64,000 nucleotides of DNA, from the IMG/VR virus record IMGVR_UViG_3300044951_001136; one strand, 5' to 3'. Within the stretch, counting starts at the first letter, position 1, and each line of letters starts with the position of its first letter. A model generated the notes under the pieces. The model had not been told where the DNA came from and did not search any database. It saw only the letters and a list, made by a program, of their open reading frames with translations. Positions 1,507-63,312 of this stretch are shown here, piece by piece. The position numbers were made by a program, and so were the translations under genes. Source of the stretch: a virus (Duplodnaviria > Heunggongvirae > Uroviricota > Caudoviricetes).

Positions 1507-1764
1507 ATGGAACATCCATTCTTAGATAGAAAAACACTGTCTGAAAAGACACTAGAGGAAATTCAAGCTACCCTAACCGGGCTGATGAATAAACTTACTT
1601 TTGCTCACCGAATGGGTAATAGACCACTAATCAATCAACTTGAAATGGTGGTTGAAAGTTATCGCAACGAAGCAAATAAAAAACTTGATGAGGTAATGAA
1701 AAAACAAAACCTGCATAATCAAGTTTCTATTCAGAAAGAGGGCGAAATTGGCAACAAGAATTGA
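1507..1764 (+). CDS. hypothetical protein (85 aa, Lys/Glu-rich)
   Basis: ORF track; overlaps next gene by 17 nt. Confidence 0.35.
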   Translation: MEHPFLDRKTLSEKTLEEIQATLTGLMNKLTFAHRMGNRPLINQLEMVVESYRNEANKKLDEVMKKQNLHNQVSIQKEGEIGNKN

Positions 1765-2350
1765 ACGTGAATTTGCATTCCAAGCTGCTGTTTATTTTGA
1801 AGGGGAGTTCTTAATGAACATATATGAACTTTCATTGAGCATGGAAGTTGATACAGCATCTATTAAAGAACAAAATATAGCAATGGACCGGATACATTAC
1901 TTCTTACATAACTGTTTGGGCAATAGTATTTTTGTGCAAGATTCAGAAAAAAAAGCGATTGAGAAGTATCTACAAGCTGATATCAAAGTTTGTACTCTTC
2001 CGGACGAGCCGTATGATCAGATCATAACCATTCTGCTATTGTTGAAACTAAACGCCATAACAGAAGGTAAATTACATATAACTGATATATCACTTATTTC
2101 TGGATTAAGTGATGATGTTAAATTTATTTATGATGTAGAAACTGTAGCTAATCACCCTTTTGGTAACAAGGGCTGGTGGGAATGTGCTTCCACTTCTATA
2201 TCTGATTTATCCAAATCTAATAAAAAAGATAAAATAGTTAGATTGATAAAACATCATAATGATTGGGCCGGAGTTAGTTTGGATTGGGAACAAAAAGAAC
2301 ATACCTCTACTGAAATTATTTTCAACAATGACTACCATAAACAACCATAA
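1748..2350 (+). CDS. DnaE (Pol III alpha)-like N-terminal fragment, degenerate PHP-like region without catalytic His
   Basis: FLMNIYELSLSMEVD aligns with the DnaE PHP start FVHLRVHSDYSMIDG; AITEGKLHITDISLISGL...KF aligns with DnaE AITDFTNLCGLVKF; stops at 2350. Confidence 0.4.
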   Translation: MATRIEREFAFQAAVYFEGEFLMNIYELSLSMEVDTASIKEQNIAMDRIHYFLHNCLGNSIFVQDSEKKAIEKYLQADIKVCTLPDEPYDQIITILLLLKLNAITEGKLHITDISLISGLSDDVKFIYDVETVANHPFGNKGWWECASTSISDLSKSNKKDKIVRLIKHHNDWAGVSLDWEQKEHTSTEIIFNNDYHKQP

Positions 2351-2353
2351 GTG

Positions 2354-2382
2354 TTGATTTATCTATTGGTCTATGTTAAAAT
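2354..2382 (+). promoter_or_regulatory. sigma70-type promoter TTGATT-N17-TGtTAAAAT inside inverted repeat CTATG...CATAG; -10 ends 6 nt before ATG 2389 (leaderless)
   Basis: Read directly: ttgatt(2354-2359), 17-nt spacer, TGt+taaaat(2377-2382). Confidence 0.45.
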
Positions 2383-2388
2383 ACATAG

Positions 2389-2898
2389 ATGAGAACCGAC
2401 ATATACGATCAAATAATCCTCACAGAAAATGACCTGTGTGATTTGTATATGCGTGATTCTACCCGCACTATAAAAGATTGTTTGGTAGATGAAAAGATAA
2501 CTCTGGGTACCATATTTCTTTCAAATGAAAACTTACCCGTTCTAATAGAGTATGTTAAATCTAATTTATCAGTAAAAGAATTTGATAGTCAAAATCAATC
2601 ACAATGGCAAATGCCCAAAGAATATTATGAAATGGATATTGCTAAATGGGTATTAGCTCAATGCAAAACCGAAGAAGAACTGCAACGAGCAGGTGATGAA
2701 CTATTAAAATTCCATGATAGGAATATGTTTTCATTACTACAATACTTAAAATATCTTGTTGATACTATGCGTAGTAATAACATAGTTTGGGGAGTGGGCA
2801 GAGGTAGTAGTGTGGCTAGTTTTGTGTTGTTTTTGATAGGGATTCACAGAATTAACAGTCTTTTTTACCAATTATCAATTGATGAATTTCTAAGGTGA
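2389..2898 (+). CDS. DnaE-like fragment (end of PHP/start of palm) terminating just before the catalytic Asp pair
   Basis: VWGVGRGSSVASFVLFLIGI...SLFYQLSIDEFLR matches DnaE [20 protein letters not shown]...LLFERFLNPER; stop falls where DnaE PDFDVDF would follow. Confidence 0.55.
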   Translation: MRTDIYDQIILTENDLCDLYMRDSTRTIKDCLVDEKITLGTIFLSNENLPVLIEYVKSNLSVKEFDSQNQSQWQMPKEYYEMDIAKWVLAQCKTEEELQRAGDELLKFHDRNMFSLLQYLKYLVDTMRSNNIVWGVGRGSSVASFVLFLIGIHRINSLFYQLSIDEFLR

Positions 2899-2971: not shown

Positions 2972-3343
2972 ATGGCCACATACAGATCCGCAATGGGTAA
3001 AACCGTTGACATGTCAGCTATTGTAGCAAAAAATGAAAAAGTCAGAGCCGTGGGGAATGTCAAAAATCTTAACGCACGAGGTGACACCATTGATTCAATG
3101 GGTAGAATAATTCAACCCGCAACTGCTAAAGTAAACAATGCTTATGCTAAAACAGTGGGAAATCGTTCAGCAAACGCAAGCAAGCCACAAAGTAGAATAC
3201 AACCGGATGTTCCCACACCAGCAAAAATAGCCGTTGCTGAACTCCACCCAGAAGAATTTGAGTTAGATGAATCAATTGAAGATGATTTGGCGATTGAAAA
3301 AATCAAAGAAGAAGAAATCAAGAAAGCAACAAAGAAGAAATAA
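2972..3343 (+). CDS. hypothetical protein (123 aa, acidic/Lys-rich C-terminus)
   Basis: ORF with AAGGAG SD 8 nt upstream. Confidence 0.5.
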   Translation: MATYRSAMGKTVDMSAIVAKNEKVRAVGNVKNLNARGDTIDSMGRIIQPATAKVNNAYAKTVGNRSANASKPQSRIQPDVPTPAKIAVAELHPEEFELDESIEDDLAIEKIKEEEIKKATKKK

Positions 3344-3344
3344 C

Positions 3345-3734
3345 ATGACACACACCGAACCAAAAAAATTAGCATTTGCTCCACATAAATTCAATAAAAG
3401 CCAGTTCAACCCAATTGGCGCACATATTATCGTATGTGATATGAGTTTTGACCAACGCATTACACATGGCGGTATTCTATTGCCCAATGATGATATGAAA
3501 AGTGCAGGTATCAGGCCTCGCTGGGGAAAGATATATGCTGTGGGTTCAGAAAACAAAGATACTGACATTGTTGAAGGTAAATGGGTTTGTGTCAGTCATG
3601 GACGCTGGACTCGTGGAATTGAGATAGAAGATGAAACGGGTAAGAAAACATTGCGTAGAGTTGACGCTGATGATATACTAATGATGTCAGATGAAGAAGT
3701 ATCGGATTCAACATTAAGCGAAATGGTGTACTAA
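3345..3734 (+). CDS. GroES / T4 gp31-like co-chaperonin
   Basis: GAHIIVCDMSF...THGGILLPND...GKIYAVGSEN resembles GroES IRPLHDRVIV...AGGIVLP...GEVVAVGPG; start moved to ATG 3345 immediately after upstream TAA. Confidence 0.6.
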   Translation: MTHTEPKKLAFAPHKFNKSQFNPIGAHIIVCDMSFDQRITHGGILLPNDDMKSAGIRPRWGKIYAVGSENKDTDIVEGKWVCVSHGRWTRGIEIEDETGKKTLRRVDADDILMMSDEEVSDSTLSEMVY

Positions 3735-4018
3735 TGATAAAATGGTTTAAGAAAAAGATTCACAACTGGGCCAGTGAAGATTGGGAAAATGCTTCTAGAG
3801 TGGAAGAATCGACGGTCGGCTCAGTTAGAAGGCGTAGATTTGACCGAAATGGAATGAACTTTACTATCTACTCTGCTAACGGAGGATATGTAATGGAATA
3901 TGTTTCGTATAATGACAGAACCGAAGAACGCGATTCCACATTACATATCATTCCCAGTGAACAAGACTTGGGTCAAAGTATCGCCCACATCATAACACTT
4001 GAGATGCTTAGAAAATGA
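3734..4018 (+). CDS. hypothetical protein (94 aa)
   Basis: ORF, ATGA overlap with upstream stop. Confidence 0.4.
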   Translation: MIKWFKKKIHNWASEDWENASRVEESTVGSVRRRRFDRNGMNFTIYSANGGYVMEYVSYNDRTEERDSTLHIIPSEQDLGQSIAHIITLEMLRK

Positions 4019-4941
4019 AAAATCAACTTTGGGTTGAGCGTTATCGTCCCAAATCTGTTAAAGATTATGTTTTTGTGGATGAACGACAAAAACAACAGGT
4101 AGAAGGTTGGATAGCTAATGGTAGCATTCCGCATCTATTGTTAAGCGGCGACCCGGGTACTGGTAAGACTACTCTTGCTAAAGTATTGATCCATGAACTT
4201 GGTGTGGAAGATTATGATGTAATGGAAATCAATGCTAGTCGTGAAAATGGCGTAGCAATCGTGCGTGATAAGATTAATGGATTTGCACAAACCATGCCAT
4301 TCGGTAAGTTTAAGGTAATCCTACTTGATGAGGCCGATTACACTAGCCCAGAGTTTCAAGCAGCATTGCGTAACGATATGGAAGCATATGCTGATACAGT
4401 GAGATTTATTCTTACTTGTAACTATGAACACAAAATCATTCCAGCATTGCGTGAAAGTCGTTGCCATAAGTTTCATATTGCTAAACCCGATCGTACAGAA
4501 TATACAGCAAGGGCAGCAACTGTTTTATTGACAGAAGGTATTGAGTTTGATTTAGATACATTGGACAGTTATGTTCGTGTAGCATACCCAGACTTGCGTA
4601 AATGTTTGAATCAACTACAAGTTAATTCAAGCACCGGTAAACTATTGCCTCCGCAATCACAGGGTAATAGCGAACATGAGCTTCTAATAGAAGCAACTAC
4701 ATTGTTCAAAGCTGGCAAGATTCTTGAGGGTCGTCAGCAACTTATGCAGTACACTGCATTGTACCCGACCCGAGTTGAAGAAATTTATACTTGGGCTTAC
4801 TCTAACTTAGATTTGTGGGGAAAGACACAAGAAAAGCGTGATGCAAGTATCATTATCATTCGCAATGGTTTGGCAACATTGCCCTTAGTAGGGATTCCTG
4901 AAATAGCAATAGCGGCCTCAATTGTGGAGTTGACGGCATGA
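4015..4941 (+). CDS. clamp-loader ATPase (RFC small-subunit / T4 gp44-like)
   Basis: LLLSGDPGTGKTT Walker A, ILLDEAD Walker B, TCNY and SRC-like segment typical of RFC/gp44. Confidence 0.8.
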   Translation: MKNQLWVERYRPKSVKDYVFVDERQKQQVEGWIANGSIPHLLLSGDPGTGKTTLAKVLIHELGVEDYDVMEINASRENGVAIVRDKINGFAQTMPFGKFKVILLDEADYTSPEFQAALRNDMEAYADTVRFILTCNYEHKIIPALRESRCHKFHIAKPDRTEYTARAATVLLTEGIEFDLDTLDSYVRVAYPDLRKCLNQLQVNSSTGKLLPPQSQGNSEHELLIEATTLFKAGKILEGRQQLMQYTALYPTRVEEIYTWAYSNLDLWGKTQEKRDASIIIIRNGLATLPLVGIPEIAIAASIVELTA

Positions 4942-7994: not shown

Positions 7995-8023
7995 TTGACA
8001 ATAGCAGATTATTTTGCTACAAT
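7995..8023 (+). promoter_or_regulatory. sigma70 consensus promoter TTGACA-N17-TACAAT, -10 ends 6 nt before ATG 8030
   Basis: ttgaca 7995-8000, 17-nt spacer, tacaat 8018-8023. Confidence 0.6.
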
Positions 8024-8029
8024 AATAAG

Positions 8030-8845
8030 ATGGATTATTATGAAATTTTAGGTGTTACTAAAACCGCCTCACAAGAGGATATCAAAGGGGCCTGGCGAAG
8101 ATTGGCTAGTCAGCATCATCCCGATAAGGGAGGGGATAAAGTCAAATTTCAGGAAACACAAGCTGCGTATGAAACATTAAGTGATGCAAATAAACGCCAG
8201 CAATATGATAATCCCATGCCACAAGGATTTCCGCAGCAAGGTGGAATACCCCCAGGGTTTGAACATATATTTGGTCAAATGTTTGGTCAAAATAATCCTT
8301 TTGACATATTCAGTCAACAACGTAGACAACAACAACCTCAACAACAATTATTTAGAACAACAATAAATATATCATTAGAACAAGCATATAACGGCGGTGA
8401 ACAAATATTAAAACTACAAACACCCACGAATGTACATGCCATAACCATTCAGATTCCTAAAGGGATTCAAAATGATAATCAAATGCGTATAGATAAAGTC
8501 ATAGATGGTGCTAGTTTAATAGTAGATTTTCGGGTTGAACCCCATCTCAAATATGATAGACAAGGTAATGATTTAATTTGCAACCATCCAATTTCCGTGT
8601 TAGATTTGATTATTGGCACAAGTTTTGAATTTGTTACTCTATCAGGAAAAACGCTGGATGTAACAATTAAACCTAAAACTCAACCCTATATTCAATTAAA
8701 ATTAGCGGGACAAGGCATGCCTATACTAAATGCTACTAGCTACGGTGACCAAATTATATTGTTAAAAGCATTCATCCCTGATATAATAGGAGAACAAGTT
8801 ATCAATAGCATTACGGCTTATAAACAACAAAGGAATCAAGCATGA
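8030..8845 (+). CDS. DnaJ-family co-chaperone (J domain + divergent C-terminus)
   Basis: MDYYEILGV...HHPDKGGD J-domain with HPD motif. Confidence 0.8.
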   Translation: MDYYEILGVTKTASQEDIKGAWRRLASQHHPDKGGDKVKFQETQAAYETLSDANKRQQYDNPMPQGFPQQGGIPPGFEHIFGQMFGQNNPFDIFSQQRRQQQPQQQLFRTTINISLEQAYNGGEQILKLQTPTNVHAITIQIPKGIQNDNQMRIDKVIDGASLIVDFRVEPHLKYDRQGNDLICNHPISVLDLIIGTSFEFVTLSGKTLDVTIKPKTQPYIQLKLAGQGMPILNATSYGDQIILLKAFIPDIIGEQVINSITAYKQQRNQA

Positions 8846-11103
8846 ACCATTCACCCGAAATTGATAGCATTATTGAACAAGCGATTCATCATGCTAAAGA
8901 AAGAAAACATCAATATGTAACCGTAGAACATTTACTTCTTGGTTTGATAAATCACAGTGCATTCAAAAAATGCTTGCATAGTTTTGGTGCAGATATTGAA
9001 ACAATGGATCAAGAGATTAAGGCATACTTAGACAGTTTACATGCCATTGTAAGCAAAGAGGATGAAGTAGTACCTCGTAAAACAAATAGTTTAGAACGAG
9101 TTATGAATCGTTCTGTAACACAAGTGTTATTCACCGGTCGTAGGCAAGTAACAACTATTGACTTGTATCTTAGCATTGCGGCAGAAGGGAATAGTCATGC
9201 TCATTATTTCTTGTTGAAATACGGAATCAACAAAAATGAATTTGTAGCACATTGGCAGAAAAATTATAAGCACAACGAAGTGGGTAATCTCACCGAGAAT
9301 CAAGCCGACGAAATTCTAGAAGAATATACCATCAACTTAACACAATTAGCGGCACAAGGTAAACTTGAACCAATGATTGGTCGCGGCAAAGAACTTGACG
9401 ATATCATTAATGTACTTGCTAAACGATTCAAGAGTAATGTATTGATGGTAGGTGACCCTGGGGTTGGTAAAACAGCAATCGCCGAAGGTCTAGCACAGAT
9501 GATGATCAACAAAGAAGTACCTGAATTCTTGCATGATCATCAAATATATAGCTTGGAGATTGGCTCATTGCTTGCAGGAAGTAAATATCGCGGGGACTTT
9601 GAAGAAAAAGTCAAAGCAGTACTGGATGCGTTAAACACAAAGAAAAAGACTATCCTTTTCATTGACGAGGCACATACTATGCAGGGTTCAGGGGGTTCAT
9701 CTACTGGTTCAGTGGACTTCAGTAACATGATTAAACCCGCAATTACTAAAGGTACTCTTAAAGTTATTGCTAGCACAACTTGGGAAGAATACTACGAAAG
9801 TTTTGAAAAGGACCGTGCATTGATGCGTAGATTCTATCGTGTGTCAGTTGATGAACCTAATCACGACACAACTATTCGTATATTGAATGGATTAAGTGCT
9901 AGACTTAATGATTTTCACAATGTTGAAATTACAGATGAGGCAATCAAAGCAGCAGTTGAAAGTGCTGATCGGTATATTCATGACCGAAAGAACCCAGACA
10001 AATCTATTGATTTACTTGATGCTGCTTGCGCTAAACAACGAGTAGCAGAGAACAAAGGGGCAATCATTACCAAAGACCTTGTATTTGATCAAGTTGAACG
10101 ATTCACCGGAGTCCCTGCTGACAAGATGAAGGGTGACAACTTTGATTTGATTCATAATTTAGAATCAAATATCAAGGACAAACTATATGGTCAAGATGAA
10201 ACTGTACAAAAAGTACTTGAACGAATTTATGTTAACTTTGCTGGTATTGGTAATGATAGTAAACCAACAGGTAGTTTCTTATTCTTAGGCCCTACTGGAA
10301 CTGGTAAAACAGAATTTGCCAAACTACTTAGCAAGAACTTGGATATGCCGCTACTTAAGTATGACATGAGTGAGTATTCAGAGAAGCATAGTGTTTCAAG
10401 TTTGATTGGACCTCCTCCGGGCTATGTTGGATTCGGTGATAGTCAAGTGTCGGGTGGTAGATTGATTAATGACTTGAGCAAGAACCCACATAGTATTATG
10501 CTATTTGATGAGGTTGAAAAAGCACATCCAGAAATCTTTAATATCTTTCTACAGATGTTAGATGAAGGGCATCTTACCGGTAGTAATGGCAAGCAAGTTA
10601 ACTGTAAAAACAGTATTATCATTATGACTAGTAACTTGGGTTCTAGTGATAGCGAACGCAACAACATTGGATTTGGCACACAAGAAAAGACCGGTGAAGA
10701 TGACAAAGCATTGAAAGAATTCTTCAAGCCTGAGTTCCGTAATCGTGTTGATTTGATTTGCAAGTTTAACAAGTTGGATACACTTGCTATTAAGAAGATT
10801 GTTATCAAGTTTACCGATGACTTGAAAAAGAGTTTGTTAGACAAACATGAAATTGTAATGAATCTAAGTGAGCCAGTGGTAGAATACTTAGCAGAGCAAG
10901 GATATGATAAGAAAATGGGCGCACGACCATTAAGTCGTAAGATTGATGAATTGATTCGGGTACCTCTAAGTAAGAAAGTCTTGTTTGAGCGCATTAAATC
11001 TGCAACAATCAATGTTGTAATGTCAGCCGGAGCAATTGATTTTGTAGTAACACACAAACTAACAGCAATGGTTGATGACAATGGATTAATTATTGTTAAC
11101 TAA
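8842..11103 (+). CDS. ClpA/Hsp100-family AAA+ unfoldase (two AAA modules, Clp N-domain)
   Basis: Clp_N-like VTVEHLLLGLI; D1 Walker A GDPGVGKTA, Walker B ILFIDEAH; D2 Walker A GPTGTGKTE, Walker B IMLFDEVEKAH; 753 aa like ClpA. Confidence 0.85.
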   Translation: MNHSPEIDSIIEQAIHHAKERKHQYVTVEHLLLGLINHSAFKKCLHSFGADIETMDQEIKAYLDSLHAIVSKEDEVVPRKTNSLERVMNRSVTQVLFTGRRQVTTIDLYLSIAAEGNSHAHYFLLKYGINKNEFVAHWQKNYKHNEVGNLTENQADEILEEYTINLTQLAAQGKLEPMIGRGKELDDIINVLAKRFKSNVLMVGDPGVGKTAIAEGLAQMMINKEVPEFLHDHQIYSLEIGSLLAGSKYRGDFEEKVKAVLDALNTKKKTILFIDEAHTMQGSGGSSTGSVDFSNMIKPAITKGTLKVIASTTWEEYYESFEKDRALMRRFYRVSVDEPNHDTTIRILNGLSARLNDFHNVEITDEAIKAAVESADRYIHDRKNPDKSIDLLDAACAKQRVAENKGAIITKDLVFDQVERFTGVPADKMKGDNFDLIHNLESNIKDKLYGQDETVQKVLERIYVNFAGIGNDSKPTGSFLFLGPTGTGKTEFAKLLSKNLDMPLLKYDMSEYSEKHSVSSLIGPPPGYVGFGDSQVSGGRLINDLSKNPHSIMLFDEVEKAHPEIFNIFLQMLDEGHLTGSNGKQVNCKNSIIIMTSNLGSSDSERNNIGFGTQEKTGEDDKALKEFFKPEFRNRVDLICKFNKLDTLAIKKIVIKFTDDLKKSLLDKHEIVMNLSEPVVEYLAEQGYDKKMGARPLSRKIDELIRVPLSKKVLFERIKSATINVVMSAGAIDFVVTHKLTAMVDDNGLIIVN

Positions 11104-11111
11104 GGAACATA

Positions 11112-11837
11112 ATGGGCTTGATAAGATCAATTAAAGACATTCCCGATATTGATTATTATGAATATCGGGATAGTAAGTTTTATAACAAATATAGATATCG
11201 TGCTAAACTAAATATCCCGGGGTTGAATTTTACTTATTATATTAAAACTCCAGAAGAATTGGTGAATAGAGTGAATGCAATCGGATATAGACGTATTCAC
11301 GCCAATAGGAAATCCGAGATTATGCCAAATTTACAAAGACTTTGTGCATTTGTTGATTGGCGTAATACTCACAAAACTCGCAAAAAGACGGGTGAGATGA
11401 CCAGTAGAATTGAGCAGGATAGTGCCGCAATCTTTAGTAATGATTTAGAGTTGTTACTAACATTGAAAGAAGTTTGTAATGATATTAAAATCACTGAAGC
11501 ACAGGTGGAGGAATTTTCAGGTATAAAATACTATGTTAATGAGCCAAAGCATAAGTACAGAATTTATCTAAAATCTGCTCATATTAAGGATAAAAACTTT
11601 ATCAACGATTTAGCTGTTACACTTAAGAAAAACCAAGACTTAGTTGCTAGTAAATCGTTAATCTCTTGGTTAAAAGAGTATTCCTTATTTAATCCCTTCA
11701 AGTGGAGATATAATTACACCCATAGTAGTCATTCTATTGATTACGATAATGAAAGTACACTAAGCTATTTGATGCTAATGTATGGTGACATGCTTGGAAA
11801 ACGATATAAATTAGAGAAGTGTATAATACCTATCTAA
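11112..11837 (+). CDS. hypothetical protein (241 aa)
   Basis: ORF. Confidence 0.5.
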   Translation: MGLIRSIKDIPDIDYYEYRDSKFYNKYRYRAKLNIPGLNFTYYIKTPEELVNRVNAIGYRRIHANRKSEIMPNLQRLCAFVDWRNTHKTRKKTGEMTSRIEQDSAAIFSNDLELLLTLKEVCNDIKITEAQVEEFSGIKYYVNEPKHKYRIYLKSAHIKDKNFINDLAVTLKKNQDLVASKSLISWLKEYSLFNPFKWRYNYTHSSHSIDYDNESTLSYLMLMYGDMLGKRYKLEKCIIPI

Positions 11838-12937: not shown

Positions 12938-15900
12938 TGAAAATCAGTGCCCTACTTGAAGGTCGTACACACCTAGACGAAGGTGGCAATCTATCTATTA
13001 ACGGAAAAGAAGCACAGCATTTAGATTTAAAGGTAACTAAGCGTAGTTACATGGTTCCTAAATTAAATGAACTACTTTACGCAATTAATTCTGCTTATTT
13101 TAAAATGTATAAGCAAGGATTATGGAGTAATGAACTCTTAACAAGTGGTAAGTTCTTAAGTGGAAGTTCATTGCATTTCTTTAATGTTAAGGGTATCTCT
13201 GATGAGGTATTTACAGAAAAGAAACCAACTGTTGGTGATATTGACACCATGGTTGACAAAACAAAAGAACCTAACTTACAACAATTCTTGACAGCATACA
13301 CTAACAAACAAATAGGTGCTGCGACATTTTTAGGATTTCAAAGAGGCAATGAACAATTCTCTGGATTGTTTGAATTGCAAGACCCACCTGTTAAAGTACA
13401 GATTGATTTTGAATTTGTAGAATTTGAAAAAGACAATCCAACTGATTGGGCTAGATTTAGTCATAGTAGCGCATGGGAGGATTTGCAAGCAGGAGTTAAA
13501 GGTGTATTCCATAAATGGTTGATACAAGCATTTACAGCACTAACTCGCAAAGACTTCATATTACGAAAATTGGTTGGTAGAGGTAAATTAAGACAAGAAC
13601 AAGATGTTCCTACCACAGATAACATGTATTCTTTTGCAGTATCTAGCAAAGAAGGTGGCGGACTACGAGCAAAGTATGAACCGGTATTAGATGATAATGG
13701 AAAACCGTTAGTTAGTAAAGGTTTACCTGTAATGCGGGAAGCACCTACATCAGGATATAATCAAGACATTGGACAAATCTTTTCAACGATTTTAGACCAA
13801 CGATTAAATCCTAAACAAGCAAAAGCATTGCAAAAACAATTCTGGTCATTCACTGGCTTATTACAAGTAATGAATTCTTTGATGAGTCCTGAAGAAAAAG
13901 AACAAGTAATGCAGGGGTTCTTGCAAAAGACAATAGGGCCAGGTGCACAGGGTATGTACAAAAATAACCCTGATAAAGATATTGCAGAGAAAATGGTAGC
14001 GATCAACACCTTACTAGACACATTAAAACTATCTAAGTCCGCTGAATTAGACCAACTACTTGCTGCATACCGTAAATCATTCAAATATACATCAGCTGGT
14101 GCTGAAGAAAAAGCAGGAGCTGATGCCGATGTTGTAAAATCAATGGCAAAGAATACATTAGCCGAAGCAGTTCCTAGCTATAAGCGTAAGGGTATTCAAC
14201 ATATATACAATCCTGGTTCATCTACTGAGATGAAGGATGCAGATTTTATCAATTTTTGTAAAGAGATAGCACAAGATGGTGGCAATTTTGCAAATGTTCC
14301 TATTAACTTGAAAGTAGATGGTGCTGGCATAAGATTTGGCAGAACACAAAATGGTGAACCATTCTTTATGACTAGTAGAGTTGAAACTCCCATGACTAAA
14401 GCCAACATTGGTGATTTTGAGAAGTATGGAAGAAGTCAAGGTCAATCTGATGAGCAACTGACAAGAACACAAAATTATGATAAAGTATTAAGTATAATTG
14501 TTAATGCTAAATTTATGAAAGATATTCCACCTGATACAATTGTCAATGCTGAAATGTTATTCAATCCAATGGCACAACAAGATAGTGGTGGTTTTAAGTT
14601 TGTTAACATCCCATATGATCCTAAGAAATTAGGTAAGGTAATGACTCTTGTTCCAATTACTGTTAAGCAATACAGTACGGGTGAACAAAGTCCTGATGCT
14701 GATGAGATTAAAGAAGCATTAATTAAAGATAGCACCCCTGATATCAAAATGATTAATAATACATTGAGCCATAAAGGCATTGATGTTAGTAAAATTGTTA
14801 ATCCTATCGTAAAGAACTCAGCAGCATTATTGAATGCGGTGTCTCAGAGAGGGGATTCACCTGACAAACAAAAAGCAAAAGCAATATTATCTGCTGCAAG
14901 ACAAGCATTAAGCAAGGTGATTATTAACAGTCCTATACCAGGGAAAGATCAACTTGGTGATATGATTGAAGGTCTTGTTATTAATATGCCAAGCGGTACT
15001 CTTGCTAAAGTAACAAGTCCTGACATGCAGCAAAAGATGGCTGACAAACAAGCCATGAACAAGAAGCCAACTGAAGGTGGAAATCGCACAACCACCGCAG
15101 TAATCACTTATGGTTCATTTGTGGGTCATAAAGGACATGAACAGTTAATTGATGAAACAATTGCTATAGCAAAACAAGTGGGTGGAGTACCATTCATATA
15201 TGTAAGTCCAGTTGTTGGTCCAGATGATCCTATTCCACCAGCAGACAAAGTTAAAACATTGCAGAAGTTGTATCCACAATATGCAAACAACATTCAAGTT
15301 TGGGATGCAGGCGGAACTGCAATGAAGAAGATTGAAAAAGAACTTGTTCTTCCGGCTAATAGTAAATACAATAAAATTATAGTTGTAGTAGGTGCGGATA
15401 GAAAAGACAGTACAGAGTCGTGGTTAAATAGTTTAGAAAAGCGCATGAAAGATCCAGTTGCATTAGCCAAGTATGGTGGGACACAAAATCAAGTTGAATT
15501 TCAAACAATTGGTACAGAGCGTGATCCTGAAAAAGGTGGAACTGGAATAAGTTTTACTCAATTGCGTGATATCTTAAAAAATCCTAATGCAAGTGAACAA
15601 GACAAATTAAACGTTTGGATGCAGGCATTTGATTCACAAAAGCTAGGAGTAGCGTGGATAAAGCATTTAATGGATACTACTGCAAAATATTCAAACAATC
15701 AACCGCAAGCTATTAAAGAGTATATTAAAAAGATTAAGCCAATGCTTGAGTATGCTACTCCTATTCAGAAAGTTAAAATATACAATCAATTGTTAGAAGC
15801 AAAACAACATCTAGATGAGATGGGTGCTACCATTGAACCTATAGAAGAAGAAGAGGTGATGGCTCATATGGCAAACGCCTTAATCAAAGGTGCACCTATT

Positions 15901-17026: not shown

Positions 17027-18352
17027 ATGAACCTAAAAGAATTAAACAGTTTTAAACTAAGTGATGCAGTTACATTCCACGACAAACTTAATCCAAAGTT
17101 ATGGAACGGTACTAAACTACGGTCAGAAGTTAGAGAACAACTTATAAAGATAGCACAAGACTTTTTATCGGAATTAGGGGTACATGATTTAGATGTAAAA
17201 GACATCACCATATCAGGCAGTAATGCTGCATTTAGTTACACAAAGCACAGTGATTTAGATTTGCATATATTAGTAGACATGGGCAATTTGCCTATAGATG
17301 AAGTATATAAAGAGTTATTCAATGCAAAGAAAACAATTTACAATGATTCCCATGATATAACAATTCATAAAATTCCAGTAGAATTGTATGTACAAGACAG
17401 TAGAGAACCTGTAGTAAGTTTAGGTGAATATAGTATAATTAATGACCAGTGGATAAGAATACCCACTAAGCGTAGAAGTGATTTTGACCAAACTGCCACT
17501 AAAAGTAAGTATGAAAAGTTATTAGCTGTAATGGAGATTGCCCTCAAATCAAGAAAGTACAGCAGAGTAAAACATATATTAGATACAATCAAAAGATATA
17601 GACAAGCAGGGTTAGATAAAGGGGGTGAATTTTCACCTGAGAATTTAGCATTTAAGATGTTGCGTAGCCAGGGATATATTACAAAGTTGTATGATTTAAG
17701 AAACAAGTTACATAGTGAGAAGTTATCGTTTGAAACTATGTATCGTAATGTCACAGACGAAGATTATGATCCAAATGGTCCTCCTCCTGGACCAGAGTTT
17801 AAACCAACGATGCCCGCAGGTACTGTTAAAGTAGATGTTAGTGATGTATATGATTGGTATAAGTTAGGTCAACATATTAGCAATCTTAAAGGATTAGGAA
17901 AGCATGATTTTGGTAAAGGACCACCTAGTACCATACTGGCGTTTGGAAGTGAAGATGAAGAACATAAGTATATTGATGCACTAAAAAAGACTGGATTAAC
18001 AACAACAGATATTGATCCAGTTGATCCAAAACAACCTAAAGGTATGCCTAGACAGAAAGTTGATCCTACATATAATGTCGGTGAAAATTACACTATGCAA
18101 TTTGCCAGTGAAAAGACTTCAGCAATAAATCCATACGGTGGGCGTAAAGACAATCAATATCGTGGTGGAATAAGTGAAGCAAGTGGTTACATTCCTTCCG
18201 AGTCAGAAAAAAATGATCCACGATTTAAGACCGCACTAACCGTGGATGTGAATCCGTATAGCATTCAGGACAACTCTACGAGACTAGGGTTAGGTAAAAT
18301 AAAAAGAAGCGGTGTACCAAAAACTGCCCCTACAAACGGAAAAATCTCTTAA
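17027..18352 (+). CDS. Pol-beta-superfamily nucleotidyltransferase-domain protein (441 aa)
   Basis: ITISGSNAAFSYTKHSDLDLHILVD fits the hG[GS]x9-13DhDh minimal NTase motif. Confidence 0.55.
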   Translation: MNLKELNSFKLSDAVTFHDKLNPKLWNGTKLRSEVREQLIKIAQDFLSELGVHDLDVKDITISGSNAAFSYTKHSDLDLHILVDMGNLPIDEVYKELFNAKKTIYNDSHDITIHKIPVELYVQDSREPVVSLGEYSIINDQWIRIPTKRRSDFDQTATKSKYEKLLAVMEIALKSRKYSRVKHILDTIKRYRQAGLDKGGEFSPENLAFKMLRSQGYITKLYDLRNKLHSEKLSFETMYRNVTDEDYDPNGPPPGPEFKPTMPAGTVKVDVSDVYDWYKLGQHISNLKGLGKHDFGKGPPSTILAFGSEDEEHKYIDALKKTGLTTTDIDPVDPKQPKGMPRQKVDPTYNVGENYTMQFASEKTSAINPYGGRKDNQYRGGISEASGYIPSESEKNDPRFKTALTVDVNPYSIQDNSTRLGLGKIKRSGVPKTAPTNGKIS

Positions 18353-25383: not shown

Positions 25384-25992
25384 ATGCTTAAACTACTCTT
25401 TCCGTTGCCAAAAGAAGTTGTTGTCGCACTAAGCGGCGGGGTTGACTCTGTTGCTATTACAGATTTCCTTTCCCGTAAACATAAAGTAACTTGCGCTTTC
25501 TTCCATCATGGAACAGAGAATAGTGAACGGGCATTTGAATTTGTTGCTAAATTCTGCACTGAACGAAATCTTCCACTTATGGTTGGCCTGATTAAGAATG
25601 ATAAACCTAAAGTACTTAGTACAGAAGAACACTGGCGCAACGAACGCTATGACTTCTTGGACAGCTTTGGTGATTCATTGGGTCCAATTATTACCGGTCA
25701 TCACTTAGATGACTGCGTAGAAACATATCTTTGGTCATCAATGCATGGCCAGGCAAAAGTTATCCCAGCAAAAAGAAACAATGTAGTACGCCCATTTCTA
25801 ACAACAACTAAAACCGAATTCACAAATTGGTGTAAACAGAAATCTATTGATTGGTGTCACGATAATAGTAATGATGACACCAAATATATGCGTAACTATG
25901 TCAGACAACATATTATACCACACGCATTCCATATTAACCCCGGGCTAAGAACGGTGGTAAAAAAGATTGTAGAAAATCAGCAAAATGTTTGA
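25384..25992 (+). CDS. PP-loop ATP pyrophosphatase, TilS-like N-terminal domain (possibly a QueC-type role)
   Basis: VALSGGVDS PP-loop; ITGHHLDDCVETYLW and VVRPFL resemble TilS GHHxDDQAET / iRPLL; lacks the QueC Cys cluster; 202 aa. Confidence 0.65.
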   Translation: MLKLLFPLPKEVVVALSGGVDSVAITDFLSRKHKVTCAFFHHGTENSERAFEFVAKFCTERNLPLMVGLIKNDKPKVLSTEEHWRNERYDFLDSFGDSLGPIITGHHLDDCVETYLWSSMHGQAKVIPAKRNNVVRPFLTTTKTEFTNWCKQKSIDWCHDNSNDDTKYMRNYVRQHIIPHAFHINPGLRTVVKKIVENQQNV

Positions 25993-26038: not shown

Positions 26039-26299
26039 ATGTCAGCAAAAATGTTTACAGGTGAGCAAAAAATTAAGTTAACCCAATTGGTGAATGAAGG
26101 AATGGTAGTCCTACATGAGATTGATACCCTTCGTGAGGGACTATCCGATACTATTAAGGCTATTGGTGAAGAACTAGAAGTTAAGCCTAGTATACTTAAG
26201 AAAGCAATCTCTGTGGCACACAAAGCAAGTCTTGGCCAAACCACTGCTGACCACGAAGAACTTGTGACAATTTTGGAAACTGTGGGAAAAACTTTATAA
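26039..26299 (+). CDS. hypothetical protein (86 aa)
   Basis: ORF, TAATG-coupled to DNA polymerase. Confidence 0.45.
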   Translation: MSAKMFTGEQKIKLTQLVNEGMVVLHEIDTLREGLSDTIKAIGEELEVKPSILKKAISVAHKASLGQTTADHEELVTILETVGKTL

Positions 26300-29004
26300 T
26301 GTCATATGTGGATGCAATACATTCCAGAGATGAAGATAAAATTTTTGTAGTAGAACGGGATAAGAATGGCAAGCGTCAATACAAAGAATATTCCACAAAC
26401 TATGTACTGTATTATCCTGATCGTAAGGGCAAGTATCGCAGTATATACGGTGACCCCGTAAATCGTTTCAGCACACGCAAACGACAAGAGTTTGAAAAAG
26501 AAAGACGCATCCATTCAGGTAAGAAATTATTTGAAAGTGATGTACCAGTGGTGTTTCGTTGCCTTAGTGAAAACTATCTTAAGGCAGATGTTCCCAATCT
26601 GCATACTTGCTTCTTTGACATTGAAACTGATTTTGATCCGATTAAGGGGTTTAGTCCAACAACCGATCCGTTCAATCCAGTAACCGCTATCAGTTGTTAT
26701 CTAGATTGGCTGGATCAATTGGTTACATTGGTCATTGCTCCCAAGCATATGAGTAAAGAAACAGCACAGGAAATTTGTAATGAGTTTGAAAACTGTTTAC
26801 TTTTTGCCAATGAGAAGGATATGTTTGATGTTTTCTTTCAACTCATTGAAGATGCTGATGTATTGACTGGTTGGAACTCAGAAGGATATGACATACCTTA
26901 CATGGTTAATCGGGTTACCCGAGTAATGAGTAAAGATGATACACGCAAGTTTTGTTTGATGGGTCAACTGCCTAAACCACGCACATATGAACGGTTTGGT
27001 AAAGAAGAACAAACATACGACTTAGTTGGTCGTATTCATTTGGACTACTTACAACTCTACAAGAAATACAACTATGAATCCCGTCACAGCTACAAGTTAG
27101 ATGCGATTGGTGAAATGGAAGTAGGAGAAAACAAAACTCAATACGAAGGTACGCTAGATCAATTGTATAACAAAGACTTTAAAAAGTTTATTGAATACAA
27201 CAGACAAGATACTATGTTGTTGGTGAAGATTCACAACAAACTTAAGTTTTTAGAACTTGCTAATCAATTGGCGCACGAGAACACTGTACTGCTTCCAACA
27301 GTCATGGGTTCAGTAGCAATGGTTGAGATGGCAATTTTTAATGAAGCCCACGAACGTGGATTGGTAGTGCCAGACAAAAAACGAAAGATTGAAAATGCAG
27401 AAGAAACAACGACAGCAGCAGGTGCCTTCGTTGCTACGCCGAAAAGAGGCATGCACGAATATGTCGGAGCAGTTGACATCAACTCGCTCTATCCCTCGGT
27501 TATTCGTGCCCTCAACATGGCAGGAGAAACCATCATCGGTCAAGTCCGACAGACATTAACTGACAAGTATATGGACGACAAAGGCAAGCAACTTGCTAGC
27601 GTTAAGAAACGATTCAAAGAGGGTGACGAGGACGTTACTGGTGCTATTCTTTGGGAAAACTTGTTTAGCGTATTAGAATATACTGCTATTATGAATCAAG
27701 AACGCGGAACAATACTGACATTAGACTACGAAGATGGCAGGTCAGTAGAGATGAGTGCAGCCGAGATTTGGAAGATGATTTTTGATAGCAATCGCCCATG
27801 GATGTTGTCAGCTAATGCTACTATCTTTACTTACGAAAAAGAGGGTGTAGTCCCTGGACTACTTACTCGCTGGTATAGTGAGCGTAAAGAAATGCAAGCT
27901 AAAGCTAAATCAGCTTATGGCACTGATCAATATGAATATTTTGATAAGCGTCAGCTTGTTCGTAAAATTTTGTTGAACTCAGCATATGGTGCGTTGTTGA
28001 ATGAGCATTGCAGATTCTATGATAAGCGCATCGGTCAAAGTGTTACCTTGAGTGGTCGTCAGATTGTTAAGCATATGATGAGTACAATCAATGAAACAAT
28101 CGCAGGTGAATATTCACATGATGGTCAAGCTATTGTGTATGGAGATACTGACTCATGTTATTTTACTGCATATCCTATTCTCAAAACACAAATAGCAAGT
28201 GGTGAACTAGAGTGGAACAAAGAAACTTGTATCGGCTTGTATGATAGTATAGCTGATCAAGCAAATGAATCATTCCCTGCATTCATGGAAAAGGCATTTC
28301 ATGCCCCAAGAAAGAACGGTGAAATCATCAAAGCTGGTCGTGAATTGATTGGTGATCGTGCTATCTTCATCACAAAGAAACGCTATGCCATCAATATCTT
28401 TGATAAAGAAGGCAAGCGTAAAGATATCAATGGTAAGAATGGTGATATCAAAGCGACGGGCCTTGACTTAAAGCGTGCCGATACCCCAAAGTATATACAA
28501 GAATTCTTAATGACGGTGCTTACAAAGGTCCTTGCTGGTGAGCAGCGGGACAAAGTTATTGAAATGGTTAAAGAATTCAAAAACAAGTTGTCTGAACAAG
28601 ATAGCTGGACAAAGGGATCACCAAAGAGTGTTAACAATCTAACTAAACATACTATTGAGTTTGAAAAGTCGGGCAAGTGTGGTGTTGGTCATGCCCGAGC
28701 AGCAATTAACTGGAACTATCTACGCAGAGTATACGGGGATAATTACAGTCAAAAGATTATAGATGGTATGAAGATTGTTGTATGTAAACTCAAAGATAAT
28801 GCATTGGGATTCACTAGTATTGCATATCCGGTTGATGAATTAAGATTACCACAATGGTTCAAAGACTTGCCATTTGATGATTTACTAATGGAATCAACAC
28901 TAGTAGATGAGAAGATAGACAACTTACTTGGTGTATTGGATTGGGATATCAGAAGTAATACTGATGTTAACTCAACATTTGATGATTTGTTCAGCTTCGG
29001 GTAA
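26299..29004 (+). CDS. family-B DNA polymerase (T4 gp43-like) with 3'-5' exonuclease domain
   Basis: FFDIETD exo I; DINSLYPSV motif A; NSAYGAL motif B region; VYGDTDSCYF motif C. Confidence 0.9.
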   Translation: MSYVDAIHSRDEDKIFVVERDKNGKRQYKEYSTNYVLYYPDRKGKYRSIYGDPVNRFSTRKRQEFEKERRIHSGKKLFESDVPVVFRCLSENYLKADVPNLHTCFFDIETDFDPIKGFSPTTDPFNPVTAISCYLDWLDQLVTLVIAPKHMSKETAQEICNEFENCLLFANEKDMFDVFFQLIEDADVLTGWNSEGYDIPYMVNRVTRVMSKDDTRKFCLMGQLPKPRTYERFGKEEQTYDLVGRIHLDYLQLYKKYNYESRHSYKLDAIGEMEVGENKTQYEGTLDQLYNKDFKKFIEYNRQDTMLLVKIHNKLKFLELANQLAHENTVLLPTVMGSVAMVEMAIFNEAHERGLVVPDKKRKIENAEETTTAAGAFVATPKRGMHEYVGAVDINSLYPSVIRALNMAGETIIGQVRQTLTDKYMDDKGKQLASVKKRFKEGDEDVTGAILWENLFSVLEYTAIMNQERGTILTLDYEDGRSVEMSAAEIWKMIFDSNRPWMLSANATIFTYEKEGVVPGLLTRWYSERKEMQAKAKSAYGTDQYEYFDKRQLVRKILLNSAYGALLNEHCRFYDKRIGQSVTLSGRQIVKHMMSTINETIAGEYSHDGQAIVYGDTDSCYFTAYPILKTQIASGELEWNKETCIGLYDSIADQANESFPAFMEKAFHAPRKNGEIIKAGRELIGDRAIFITKKRYAINIFDKEGKRKDINGKNGDIKATGLDLKRADTPKYIQEFLMTVLTKVLAGEQRDKVIEMVKEFKNKLSEQDSWTKGSPKSVNNLTKHTIEFEKSGKCGVGHARAAINWNYLRRVYGDNYSQKIIDGMKIVVCKLKDNALGFTSIAYPVDELRLPQWFKDLPFDDLLMESTLVDEKIDNLLGVLDWDIRSNTDVNSTFDDLFSFG

Positions 29005-32988: not shown

Positions 32989-33663
32989 ATGGCGTATAAT
33001 AAGCAAAAAACAGACCCAGAGTTGGGTCAACGAGTACACGAACATTTAGTTAAGATGGGAGTTGAAACTCCTACTATCCCAAACAACTACGACCGTAAAG
33101 AAAAGATAGACCATATTGAAGCGCACTTTGCACATATTATGCGTATCTTAGGTCTTGACTTATCAGACGATAGTTTAATGGATACCCCAAAGCGTGTAGC
33201 AAAAATGTATGTCAACGAAATCTTTTGGGGTCTTGATTACGAAGCATTCCCTAAATGTACCGCAGTTGATAACAAAATGAAGTACAATGAAATGGTATGT
33301 GAACGCAATATTAATGTACAAAGTAATTGTGAACATCATTTAGTGATTATCTCCGGTCTAGCAACTGTCGCATATGTGCCTAAACAAAAGGTACTTGGAT
33401 TGAGTAAAATCAATCGTATCGTAGAATACTTTAGCAAGCGACCACAAATCCAAGAACGATTAACAGAACAAGTCTTTCACGCATTACAATACATACTTGA
33501 AACAGAAGATGTTGCGGTTATGGTTGACGCACAACATTACTGTGTGAAAAGCAGGGGAGTTGAGGATACGGGTAGTAGTACTGTAACAAGTAGATTAGGT
33601 GGTGGGTTTAAAACTGATCCAGCAGCTAGAGCAGAATTCTATCAATTAGCAAGGGGACGATAA
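32989..33663 (+). CDS. folE: GTP cyclohydrolase I
   Basis: NCEHHLVIISG ... LGLSKINRIVEYFSKRPQIQERLT ... DAQHYCVKSRG conserved FolE core. Confidence 0.9.
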   Translation: MAYNKQKTDPELGQRVHEHLVKMGVETPTIPNNYDRKEKIDHIEAHFAHIMRILGLDLSDDSLMDTPKRVAKMYVNEIFWGLDYEAFPKCTAVDNKMKYNEMVCERNINVQSNCEHHLVIISGLATVAYVPKQKVLGLSKINRIVEYFSKRPQIQERLTEQVFHALQYILETEDVAVMVDAQHYCVKSRGVEDTGSSTVTSRLGGGFKTDPAARAEFYQLARGR

Positions 33664-33845
33664 TGAACTGGATCAATATAGACAATTTGATGATGGGAAT
33701 TATAATTGGATATATACTAAATCCACTGCTAGCAGCATTTATATCAATATTTACTAATGCTTGGAAAAGTACAAACTCGGTATGTACCGGAAATTGTAAT
33801 CAAGGTCGTAACTGTACATGCAGAGGAAAAAATGGGATTTCGTAA
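33663..33845 (+). CDS. small membrane protein with Cys-rich tail (60 aa)
   Basis: TAATG-coupled to folE; one TM helix. Confidence 0.3.
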   Translation: MNWINIDNLMMGIIIGYILNPLLAAFISIFTNAWKSTNSVCTGNCNQGRNCTCRGKNGIS

Positions 33846-34068
33846 ACCAATGGACTATACCGGTGTTCATCATCAAATTTACACAGCTGGAATAGAATTG
33901 CATAGCAACTACAACGATGGTTTCAATCAGTTTGAAATCAAAAAAGACTTACATCGTATCAAGTGGTTGCTTGATGAGATTATGGCTGATTCACCTACAT
34001 TCGCCGGCGAAGAAGAATTTCTTGATGAACATTCTAAAATAAAGATGTGGAGAACATTAAAAAAATGA
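33832..34068 (+). CDS. hypothetical protein (78 aa)
   Basis: Start moved to ATG 33832 after GAGGAAAA SD. Confidence 0.35.
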   Translation: MGFRKPMDYTGVHHQIYTAGIELHSNYNDGFNQFEIKKDLHRIKWLLDEIMADSPTFAGEEEFLDEHSKIKMWRTLKK

Positions 34069-34526
34069 TATTCAACAGAATCAAAGAACTAAAACAACAA
34101 GGGCTTAAGATAGGTATCGTATTCTCCCAATTTGATATTCTACATGCCGGGCATATTGCAATGCTTAGTGAAGCTAAAAATCATTGCGACTATCTTATTG
34201 CTGGTTTGCAGAATAACGCACAATGGGATAGAGCGGAGAAGAATGCTCCTATTCAAAGTATTGTTGAGAGGCAGATTAGTTTAAGTGCTGTCCGTTTTGT
34301 AGATGAAATTGTTGTTTACAATACTGAGAAGGACTTGGAAGATATTCTACTCATACTACCTATTGATGTTCGTATCTTGGGTGTAGAATACAAAGATAAG
34401 GATTTTACGGGTAGCGATATTTGTCAAACTCGCAGAATTGAAATAGTATTTAATGAGCGTGATCACAGTTTCAGTAGTTCAAGTCTACGTAAACGAGTTG
34501 CGGACGCACATCAAAAAGATAAGTAA
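34047..34526 (+). CDS. cytidylyltransferase-fold nucleotidyltransferase, TagD / RfaE-domain-II-like
   Basis: GIVFSQFDILHAGHIAML (HxGH), DYLIAGL, C-terminal DHSFSSSSLRKRV (ISxTxIR-like) parallel B. subtilis TagD; alternative start ATG 34065. Confidence 0.7.
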   Translation: MENIKKMIFNRIKELKQQGLKIGIVFSQFDILHAGHIAMLSEAKNHCDYLIAGLQNNAQWDRAEKNAPIQSIVERQISLSAVRFVDEIVVYNTEKDLEDILLILPIDVRILGVEYKDKDFTGSDICQTRRIEIVFNERDHSFSSSSLRKRVADAHQKDK

Positions 34527-34527
34527 A

Positions 34528-35031
34528 ATGACACAACTACCAGTAACATATAAGTGGACTTCCACAAAAGAGTATCACGATGCGTTCCCCTGTGCTTATA
34601 GACAGTACAAAGCCGACAGCCATTGCCAGTTTTTACATGGTTATAGCTTCTCAATGAAGTTCTATTTTGGAACAAACGACTTAGATGCGCGCCGATGGGC
34701 TGCGGATTATGGCGGCTTGAAAGAACTAAAGCAAACATTAGAGAGTCAATTTGACCATACAACATTAGTGGCTGAATCAGATCCACATCTAGACTGGTAT
34801 GTGCAGGCGGAACATCGTGGCATTATGAAATTAACTATTCTCCCCAACTTAGGATGTGAAAGTCTTGCAGATATGCTATACAAGTATGTTAACGGGGTTT
34901 ACATTCCTGATATGTGGGGTGAAAGTGAAGCAAAGCGTTTGTGGTGCTATCGGGTTGAAGTACGTGAAACACAGGCAAATATGGCTTTTAGAGAGGGGCA
35001 TCGTGAATGGAATGAGGATTTGTTTGAATGA
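34528..35031 (+). CDS. queD: 6-carboxy-5,6,7,8-tetrahydropterin synthase (QueD / PTPS family)
   Basis: SHCQFLHGYSFSM (Cx3HGx) and EHRG T-fold motifs; start moved to ATG 34528 after upstream TAA. Confidence 0.75.
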   Translation: MTQLPVTYKWTSTKEYHDAFPCAYRQYKADSHCQFLHGYSFSMKFYFGTNDLDARRWAADYGGLKELKQTLESQFDHTTLVAESDPHLDWYVQAEHRGIMKLTILPNLGCESLADMLYKYVNGVYIPDMWGESEAKRLWCYRVEVRETQANMAFREGHREWNEDLFE

Positions 35032-35246
35032 GTTCTGATTCAGACTTTAAAATGTTTAAATGGGTACCTGATGGTACTTATGATTACAGTGACTTTCTTA
35101 CACGATATGTTATAGTCAATGGTAATCCAACTGTTGTTATCAATCGTGCGTGGGTAAATAGTGGAGGACCAGAAGGAGTTTCAGCCGAATTGAAACAAGC
35201 ATGGGGTTCATTTCCTGATATGCCTCTAAAGCCATTAAAGAAATAA
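35028..35246 (+). CDS. hypothetical protein (72 aa)
   Basis: ATGA-coupled ORF. Confidence 0.4.
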   Translation: MSSDSDFKMFKWVPDGTYDYSDFLTRYVIVNGNPTVVINRAWVNSGGPEGVSAELKQAWGSFPDMPLKPLKK

Positions 35247-35401
35247 TGAAGATATTTTGGAGAATATGGGCAAAATCCCTAGGTGAGAAAGCGGGCACAA
35301 CCGATACAGAATCTGACCGTATTGCGTGTATTAGAACTTGTATTGTGTTATGCTATGTCATTACAAACTTGTTTATCATAGCAGGTGCAATTAGTTAGAT
35401 T
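35246..35401 (+). CDS. small hydrophobic protein (51 aa)
   Basis: TAATG-coupled ORF below track cutoff; C-terminal TM helix. Confidence 0.25.
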
Positions 35402-35413
35402 AAGGATCAAAAA

Positions 35414-62759: not shown

Positions 62760-62859
62760 TCTAAATAGTATAATTTTTTGCGTATTGCTGATACACTAAA
62801 TATATGTGAGTGCCGATAGTCGGGCTCACACAGTCATATTTGCTTATAGGAGAAATAAC

Positions 62860-63312
62860 ATGACAAAAACATTAACCCTTCGTTCCCTTGACATTCCGCA
62901 ACTTCACAAATTTGGTATCGGTTTTGATACTATTTTTGATGATTTACATAGGATGCATTCCCAACAATCTAACACAAACTATCCCCCATACAATGTCGTC
63001 CAAATTACTGAGGACGAATATATGATTAGTATAGCAGTAGCTGGATTTGGTTTTGATAACCTTTCAGTAACAAAAGATAAAAACTTTTTGATTATTGAAG
63101 GTAAAAATACTATCAATGAAGAAGACTTACCTGAGATTAACTATCTACACAAGGGTATCAGTAATAGAGATTTTCGCAGAGAATTCAAACTTGCTGATCA
63201 TGTTGAGATAGTAAATGCACATCTTGAATTGGGTATTCTTAGTGTTCATCTAAAGCGTGAAGTACCTGAAGAACAAAAGCCCAGATCAATTGTAATATCC
63301 CATACTAAATAG
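62860..63312 (+). CDS. small heat-shock protein (IbpA/Hsp20 family)
   Basis: YPPYNVVQITEDEYMISIAVAGFGFDNLSV...LHKGISNRDFRREFKLADHVEI parallels E. coli IbpA; start set to ATG 62860 after AGGAGA. Confidence 0.85.
   Translation: MTKTLTLRSLDIPQLHKFGIGFDTIFDDLHRMHSQQSNTNYPPYNVVQITEDEYMISIAVAGFGFDNLSVTKDKNFLIIEGKNTINEEDLPEINYLHKGISNRDFRREFKLADHVEIVNAHLELGILSVHLKREVPEEQKPRSIVISHTK

Follow-up and report, generated by a model that had tools for sequence, protein, structure and literature searches.

The stretch of 64,000 nucleotides analyzed here (hereafter, the window) belongs to the virus record IMGVR_UViG_3300044951_001136 of IMG/VR (Caudoviricetes). Close to its left end, three small open reading frames (ORFs) follow each other on the same strand: ORF1, ORF2, and ORF3, with a GroES-like gene and a clamp loader gene of the gp44 (RFC) type downstream (Table 1). 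In the initial annotation, ORF1 and ORF2 had been read as the two pieces of a broken DnaE (Pol III α)-like polymerase ending just before the catalytic aspartates, and located in a phage already equipped with a complete family-B polymerase (PolB). Both ORFs were recovered with the same boundaries, and PolB is indeed complete (PF00136, E = 1.9e-38; PF03104, E = 1.6e-23). When the locus was compared with deposited phages at the DNA level, no match was obtained; the lineage is uncultured. The gene of main concern in the following is ORF2.

ORF2 matched the Pfam profile PF07733 (DNA_pol3_alpha) with an E-value of 1.3e-8 and a score of 35.3 bits (Pfam cut-off 23.9), its residues 90-168 covering positions 16-94 of the 260 in the profile. 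Against phrog_11127, the E-value was 1e-38 and the alignment reached the last of the 171 profile positions. As a single query against the sequences in the PDB, ORF2 gave no relevant match and a profile was required; when built from 12 sequences of the ORF2 family, it matched the α chains of Thermus (Taq), M. tuberculosis, and E. coli. On the E. coli protein, the numbering of which was checked by translating dnaE (R362-G363-S364, R390, N393, M399-P400-D401-F-D403-V-D405, K553-F-D555), the alignment ended at residue 393. The terminus of the family, ...DEFL[KR], corresponds to ...ERFLN393 of E. coli, and the C-terminus of ORF2 falls eight residues before D401. ORF2 is, in agreement with the initial annotation, a genuine DnaE-type fragment that ends right before the catalytic aspartates. 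Its GxGRGS motif aligned with that of Taq and M. tuberculosis α and with G-P-G-R362-G363-S364 of E. coli, which identifies it, at the level of sequence, as the predicted triphosphate-binding loop of a Pol-β-type fold. An AlphaFold model of ORF2, built on 65 diverse homologues, had a mean predicted local distance difference test score (pLDDT) of 88.8.

Proteins of this family (hereafter, N-units) are neither rare nor variable in length. Using ORF2 as the query, tblastn retrieved 95 phage records, all of them jumbo phages of the RaK2, PA5oct/MIJ3, Atu_ph07, Phosso, and SCTP-2 kind, and the alignments always extended to query residue 168 or 169. In cultured relatives, the N-unit is annotated as a stand-alone coding sequence of 169-181 amino acids (aa), embedded in the same gene order as in the window. 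At least 7970 homologues were present in a large protein collection; the best 120 were nearly all 169 aa long and stemmed from contigs of up to 344 kb. ORF2 itself had no exact entry in an assembly index. An exhaustive HMMER search over representatives clustered at 50% identity yielded 992 clusters at E ≤ 0.001, and nearly all of the best 150 of them were 150-196 aa long, with the match reaching the C-terminus. G135, G137, R138, G139, and S140 were invariant across 65 sequences, the identity of which went down to 31%. Pairwise comparison of ORF2 with related loci resulted in a median ratio of nonsynonymous to synonymous substitution rates (dN/dS) of 0.117, a value between those of the clamp loader (0.088) and the GroES-like gene (0.154); judged from the sequences, the gene is under purifying selection. 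Low dN/dS, constant length, and the invariant motif refute the notion that ORF2 is a second polymerase in decay, and relaxed selection, variable truncation, and loss of motif, by which pseudogenes are recognized, were not found. Of the readings initially put forward, the 5′ part of an interrupted gene came closest, except that a recent rearrangement is not what is seen: the split is an old and clean one that has been conserved.

In an environmental protein of 1429 aa, encoded outside the window, 13 separate segments matched the N-unit (residues 20-71); possibly, this is a repeat protein made up of copies of the poorly conserved N-terminal subdomain of the N-unit.

A divided polymerase of this type has been described before. 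Beside PolB, jumbo phages of group 2.2 possess a minimal Pol III α specific to phages (Iyer, Anantharaman, Krishnan, Burroughs & Aravind, 2021; Viruses 13:63), which was predicted computationally to consist of two parts and is represented by RaK2 ORF162/gp373, MIJ3_00130, Atu_ph07 gp316, and CBB_328. A "truncated" Pol III α of 172 aa had been reported for phage CBB (Buttimer et al, 2017), and gp316 of Atu_ph07 had been listed as well (Attai et al, 2018). ORF2 almost certainly is a member of this family: it is 41-47% identical over the conserved 100-110 residues, falls into the same phrog_11127, and is alike in length, in its C-terminal boundary, in its neighbors (a hypothetical protein, GroES-like, gp44, PhoH), and in the presence of PolB in the genome. 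The gene order is common to the window and RaK2, PA5oct, Atu_ph07, and SCTP-2, and the T4-like core with PolB and an RFC-type clamp loader, which characterizes group 2.2, was found here too. Bacterial DnaE/Pol III α and PolC comprise ∼1160 aa, whereas ORF2, with its 169 aa, contains neither PHP domain, catalytic aspartates, thumb, fingers, clamp-binding motif, nor OB domain.

The second part of the predicted polymerase is referred to as the C-unit. Probing phages with residues 394-760 of E. coli DnaE (tblastn) returned only full-length phage DnaEs and missed the C-unit of jumbo phages. It was located through the annotation of Pseudomonas phage Paride, in which a "DNA polymerase" of 200 aa (15226..15828) is encoded beside helicase and primase genes. 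Its sequence reads MAKVVTDVDIDVADR...KHLSGVYF...GYMKIDLLN...VIRPSK...FKKAHAISYA; MPDIDIDFADRELALKHIKH... is an example of a C-unit sequence. The C-unit is ∼190 aa long and retains the KxD, RP, and KSHAxxYA motifs. Many members begin with M-P-D-I-D-I-D-F, which corresponds residue for residue to M399-P400-D401-F-D403-V-D405-F of E. coli, and the start of the family, M-P-D-I-D-I-D-F-x-D-R, extends this correspondence to R411, matched by the final R. In two alignments, D3, D5, D7, R11, H..G, K63, D65, R-P, and FK.xH were invariant. With the N-unit ending at position 393 and the C-unit starting at 399 (E. coli numbering), only about five loop residues are absent between the two halves. When a profile of the C-unit was compared with the PDB, the top seven matches were all Pol III α, in collinear pieces (414-424, 567-664, and 773-788 of the M. 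tuberculosis protein).

The two units also occur together. The C-unit was found in 96 phage records, the N-unit in 95, and the counts per genus are almost identical (Escherichia 34, Pseudomonas 11, Klebsiella 10 or 11, Salmonella 8, Erwinia 8, Xanthomonas 4, Yersinia 4, and Agrobacterium 2); 28 of the 40 N-unit records listed recurred among the C-unit matches listed. Environmental homologues of the C-unit, 185-200 aa long, numbered at least 1050. The C-unit is located upstream of the N-unit at a distance of 33 kb in RaK2 (C-unit at 115,183, N-unit at 148,852), 43.5 kb in MIJ3 (51,220 and 94,782, respectively), and 44 kb in Paride; in RaK2 and the PA5oct-like phages, it is on the same strand as the N-unit. 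In Atu_ph07 and Phosso, the distance between the units is ∼180-220 kb.

ORF2 is, we think, probably the N-terminal subunit of a two-gene minimal C-family polymerase, the C-unit of which would be encoded elsewhere in the same genome, a reading at which Iyer et al (2021) had arrived independently. ORF2 would supply the first half of a Pol-β-type palm, that is, the helices and the strand-loop with GxGRGS, which would hold the triphosphate of the incoming nucleotide. The C-unit would contribute the catalytic aspartates, of which there are three (DxDxD, KxD), and what is left of the fingers (RP, KSHAxxYA), and both proteins would assemble into one active site working beside the PolB replicase. The partner in this genome may be encoded to the left of the window, as in the layout of RaK2 and PA5oct-like phages; because the N-unit is only 2.4 kb away from the left edge, a partner upstream would fall outside the window.

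Several observations weigh against a two-gene polymerase. The pair would be devoid of thumb, clamp-binding motif, PHP domain, and OB domain. The residue of ORF2 aligned with R390 of E. coli, which we take to be a triphosphate contact, is a glutamate. The E-values of the C-unit matches in the PDB are marginal (0.07-0.2), and Pfam does not recognize the C-unit even at E ≤ 10. In cultured phages, the units are 33-224 kb apart and are not cotranscribed. The C-unit is known from cultured relatives, whereas none was found in the window: the best tblastn match to Paride_0017 or to any of seven environmental C-units had an E-value of 0.09, a regular-expression search for DxDxD, KxDxLG, and HAAG found none of these motifs in any frame, and neither Pfam, applied to the 10 largest ORFs, nor PHROGs, applied to 20 more, pointed to one. 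In none of the 80 related IMG/VR loci was a C-unit located less than 10 kb from the N-unit. No contig of the clade carrying both units was among the 80-120 matches listed per scan, which does not in itself speak against the pair. Finally, no experimental or biochemical work on the split minimal Pol III was found in a literature search.

Three ORFs of the window with an N-terminal DxD were considered as C-unit and rejected. The first, of 658 aa, combines motifs of SF2 helicases, namely, Walker A (PAGTNAGKST) and a DEIH box, with a C-terminal HNH motif. The second, of 441 aa, is a complete MNT-like nucleotidyltransferase, with the full minimal Pol-β-type signature (ISGS, 11 residues, SDLDLHIL), a match to phrog_36119, and none to Pfam. 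For the third (11112..11837), there was no support.

ORF2 appears to be expressed from a promoter of its own. A σ70-type promoter stands between ORF1 and ORF2 (Table 1). A consensus scan of the window found 16 such sites where 11.6 ± 4.5 were expected, so the site, taken alone, is not above chance. When 72 unique related upstream regions were aligned on the ATG, TTG was present at −35..−33 (relative to the A of ATG) in 65-76%, TG at −15/−14 in ∼50%, and T, A, and T of T-A-n-n-n-T at −12..−7 in 68%, 73%, and 65%, respectively, the remaining spacer varying freely. The full pattern was present in 47 of the 72 regions, compared with 1.1% before random ATGs of the window, and a Shine-Dalgarno-like motif was present in none (0/72). 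As the −10 box occupies −12..−7, the predicted +1 coincides with the A of the start codon, which implies that ORF2 and the genes following it would be translated from a leaderless mRNA; this placement had been proposed initially and was corroborated by the positional conservation. The predicted transcription unit headed by ORF2 would comprise ORF3, the GroES-like gene, and the clamp loader, read from a host-type promoter with the transcript beginning at the AUG. Whereas the promoter is conserved in the window and its 80 closest IMG/VR relatives, the arrangement is not present in the five cultured relatives, in which the N-unit gene abuts or overlaps the ORF upstream.

A second layout of this kind, likewise devoid of a ribosome-binding site, precedes the DnaJ-like gene (Table 1) and was kept in 32 of 38 unique relatives. 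Because that gene shares it, the leaderless layout is a habit of the clade rather than a property of the polymerase gene; at least two operons of these phages seem to start with predicted leaderless mRNAs. The inverted repeat within which the promoter had been noted initially is present, brackets the −10 box, touches the start codon, and is common to the four nearest relatives. Across the family, it is weakly enriched (mean stem of 3.9 versus 3.5 in shuffled sequences, with stems of 5-6 bp about twice as frequent) and is not claimed here as a feature.

The most constant neighbor of the N-unit is ORF3, which follows it in 79 of 80 IMG/VR loci and in five cultured relatives, most often after 9-10 nt (73 nt in the window). 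The N-terminal ∼50 aa of ORF3 are conserved (GKxVDMxxLxxKNExxRAVGNMxVNARGDxIDxxGxVI), followed by a low-complexity tail; its dN/dS was 0.139, and it had no match in Pfam or the PDB. That the VDM[SADE] at its N-terminus provides the missing aspartate strand was considered and rejected, as the second acidic position was not conserved in 79 sequences and as, of six artificial N-unit/ORF3 fusions, only that of MIJ3 let the PF07733 alignment run on into ORF3. The constant coupling of the two genes suggests that ORF3 may work together with the N-unit. An extended version of the two-gene polymerase, with ORF3 as obligatory third subunit of a three-part mini Pol III, the operon of the N-unit being leaderless from a host-σ70 promoter, and the enzyme possibly serving gap filling, repair, or specialized nucleotidyl transfer rather than bulk replication, is conceivable, albeit doubtful.

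The coupling to ORF3 can also be read differently. ORF2, alone or with ORF3, might have no catalytic role and act, for example, as an accessory of PolB or the clamp loader that binds nucleotides or DNA; the C-unit would then not be its partner. Fixed neighbors of the N-unit are ORF3, the GroES-like gene, and the clamp loader (gp44), but not the C-unit; no piece of a polymerase is coupled to the N-unit nearly as tightly as is ORF3; ORF2 has its own promoter; and the glutamate in place of R390 fits a noncatalytic protein as well. What is hard to explain without catalysis is the strict retention of GxGRGS, and the same holds for boundaries that complement each other to the residue and for the parallel distribution of N-units and C-units among phages. 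We therefore regard such a factor as unlikely and the two-gene polymerase as the better account of ORF2.

ORF1 does not belong to this polymerase. It had been likened to the PHP region of DnaE, but had no Pfam match at E ≤ 1 and no PHROG match, and alignment of its family with residues 1-320 of E. coli DnaE (hhalign) gave a probability of 0.1%, away from the positions at which the resemblance had been seen. In the AlphaFold model, residues 1-135 had a pLDDT of ∼88, and the protein was disordered after residue 153 (a tail of ∼50 aa). Foldseek matched the model to QueD2 (E = 6.6e-6, probability 1.0), as well as to QueD and PTPS, with template modeling scores of 0.55/0.64 against QueD2 entry 7v0f. 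Based on the model, ORF1 is a conserved protein with a predicted T-fold, as in QueD/PTPS enzymes, from which it differs in lacking the PF01242 signature and the zinc histidines and in having the added disordered tail. V, Y, or F occupies the presumed zinc-histidine positions, which we expected from the QueD motif, and no His is conserved there in the family alignment. The family of ORF1 also showed no profile similarity to the normal PTPS encoded in the window itself. The latter is clustered with GTP cyclohydrolase I and a weakly matching radical-SAM (QueE-like) gene, a set that would suit 7-deazapurine synthesis. Homologues of ORF1 numbered 383, were 196-201 aa long, and none contained a Pfam domain; their first 22 residues were strongly conserved, which indicates that translation indeed begins at the TTG (1748). 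The dN/dS of ORF1 was 0.13. It was present in 65 of 80 related loci and absent in 15; in several of the latter (for example, L029, L030, and L057), a small upstream gene reaches nearly to ORF2 and leaves no space for it. RaK2 does not contain ORF1 either; in MIJ3 and Atu_ph07, the genes located upstream of the N-unit are linked to ORF1 by weak BLAST matches.

The idea that ORF1 and ORF2 are the remains of a full-length dnaE, a PHP domain deprived of its histidines followed by a truncated palm, had drawn on short motif resemblances and the adjacency of the ORFs only. It is highly improbable, given that ORF1 has a T-fold without profile similarity to DnaE and is missing from loci that keep ORF2, that a conserved promoter separates the two, that dN/dS is 0.12-0.13 for both, and that ORF2 is constant in length. 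That the stop codon at 2896-2898 stems from an error in sequencing or assembly, or is the site of a programmed frameshift, with the polymerase continuing downstream, can be practically dismissed: only the abrupt end before the DxD motif speaks for it, whereas ...EFL[KR]-stop was found in every homologue sampled, including cultured complete genomes, ORF3 downstream is an unrelated conserved family from which PF07733 stayed out in five of six artificial N-unit/ORF3 fusions (extending 14 residues into it in the MIJ3 fusion), and the motifs of the missing part are absent from all frames of the window.

Polymerases with a catalytic core divided between two genes are also known from T4-like phages of the Aeh1 type (gp43A/43B) and from cyanobacteria (split-intein DnaE). 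Unlike in intein splits, ORF2 stops right after the DnaE-homologous ...DEFLR, which leaves no room for an intein, and no homing endonuclease flanks it. The halves of the mini Pol III differ from other split polymerases in being tens to hundreds of kilobases apart, and in that the break is located inside the Pol-β-type active site, between the GS motif and DxD. An intein/HNH split is known from PolB of MIJ3 (Imam et al, 2019).

Among the other genes of the window, those for protein quality control form a set unusually full for 64 kb (GroES-like, DnaJ, ClpB-like, ClpX, Hsp20, and ClpS), and a PP-loop (TilS-like) ATPase adjoins PolB (Table 1).

Table 1. Features of the window discussed in the text.
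Feature	Position	Strand	Remarks
ORF1	1748..2350	+	200 aa, TTG start
σ70-type promoter	2354..2382	+	TTGATT (2354-2359)-17-TGtTAAAAT (2377-2382)-6-ATG (2389)
Inverted repeat	2370..2389	+	TCTATG/CATAGA
ORF2 (N-unit)	2389..2898	+	169 aa
GxGRGS motif	2791..2808	+	G135-V-G-R-G-S140 of ORF2
ORF3	2972..3343	+	123 aa
GroES-like gene	3345..3734		downstream of ORF3
Clamp loader, gp44 (RFC) type	4015..4941		by synteny with annotated clamp loaders of relatives
PhoH	after clamp loader	opposite
Second predicted leaderless layout	7995..8032	+	TTGACA-17-TACAAT-6-ATG
DnaJ-like gene	8030..8845
ClpB-like gene	8842..11103
Nucleotidyltransferase, MNT-like	17027..18352	+	441 aa
PP-loop (TilS-like) ATPase	25384..25992	+	adjoins PolB
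PolB	26299..29004		complete
GTP cyclohydrolase I, PTPS, QueE-like cluster	32989..36262	+
PTPS	34453..35031
ORF with SF2-helicase motifs and HNH	44292..46268	+	658 aa
ClpX	61557..62759
Hsp20	62806..63312
ClpS	63374..63679

It is unusual for the active site of a polymerase to be shared by two small proteins with distant genes, and the split minimal Pol III is still a purely computational prediction. It has been proposed that an ancestor of the bacterial replicase may have looked similar to such a divided polymerase (Iyer et al, 2021). The window adds to this picture that environmental phages harbor a very large number of family members, with ∼1000 clusters at 50% identity, that the N-unit comes with an uncharacterized partner, ORF3, and that one clade has a conserved promoter from which leaderless translation is predicted. 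As the two halves fit together within about five loop residues, and as each catalytic residue tested is invariant, reconstitution of the enzyme from its two parts would be easy to design.

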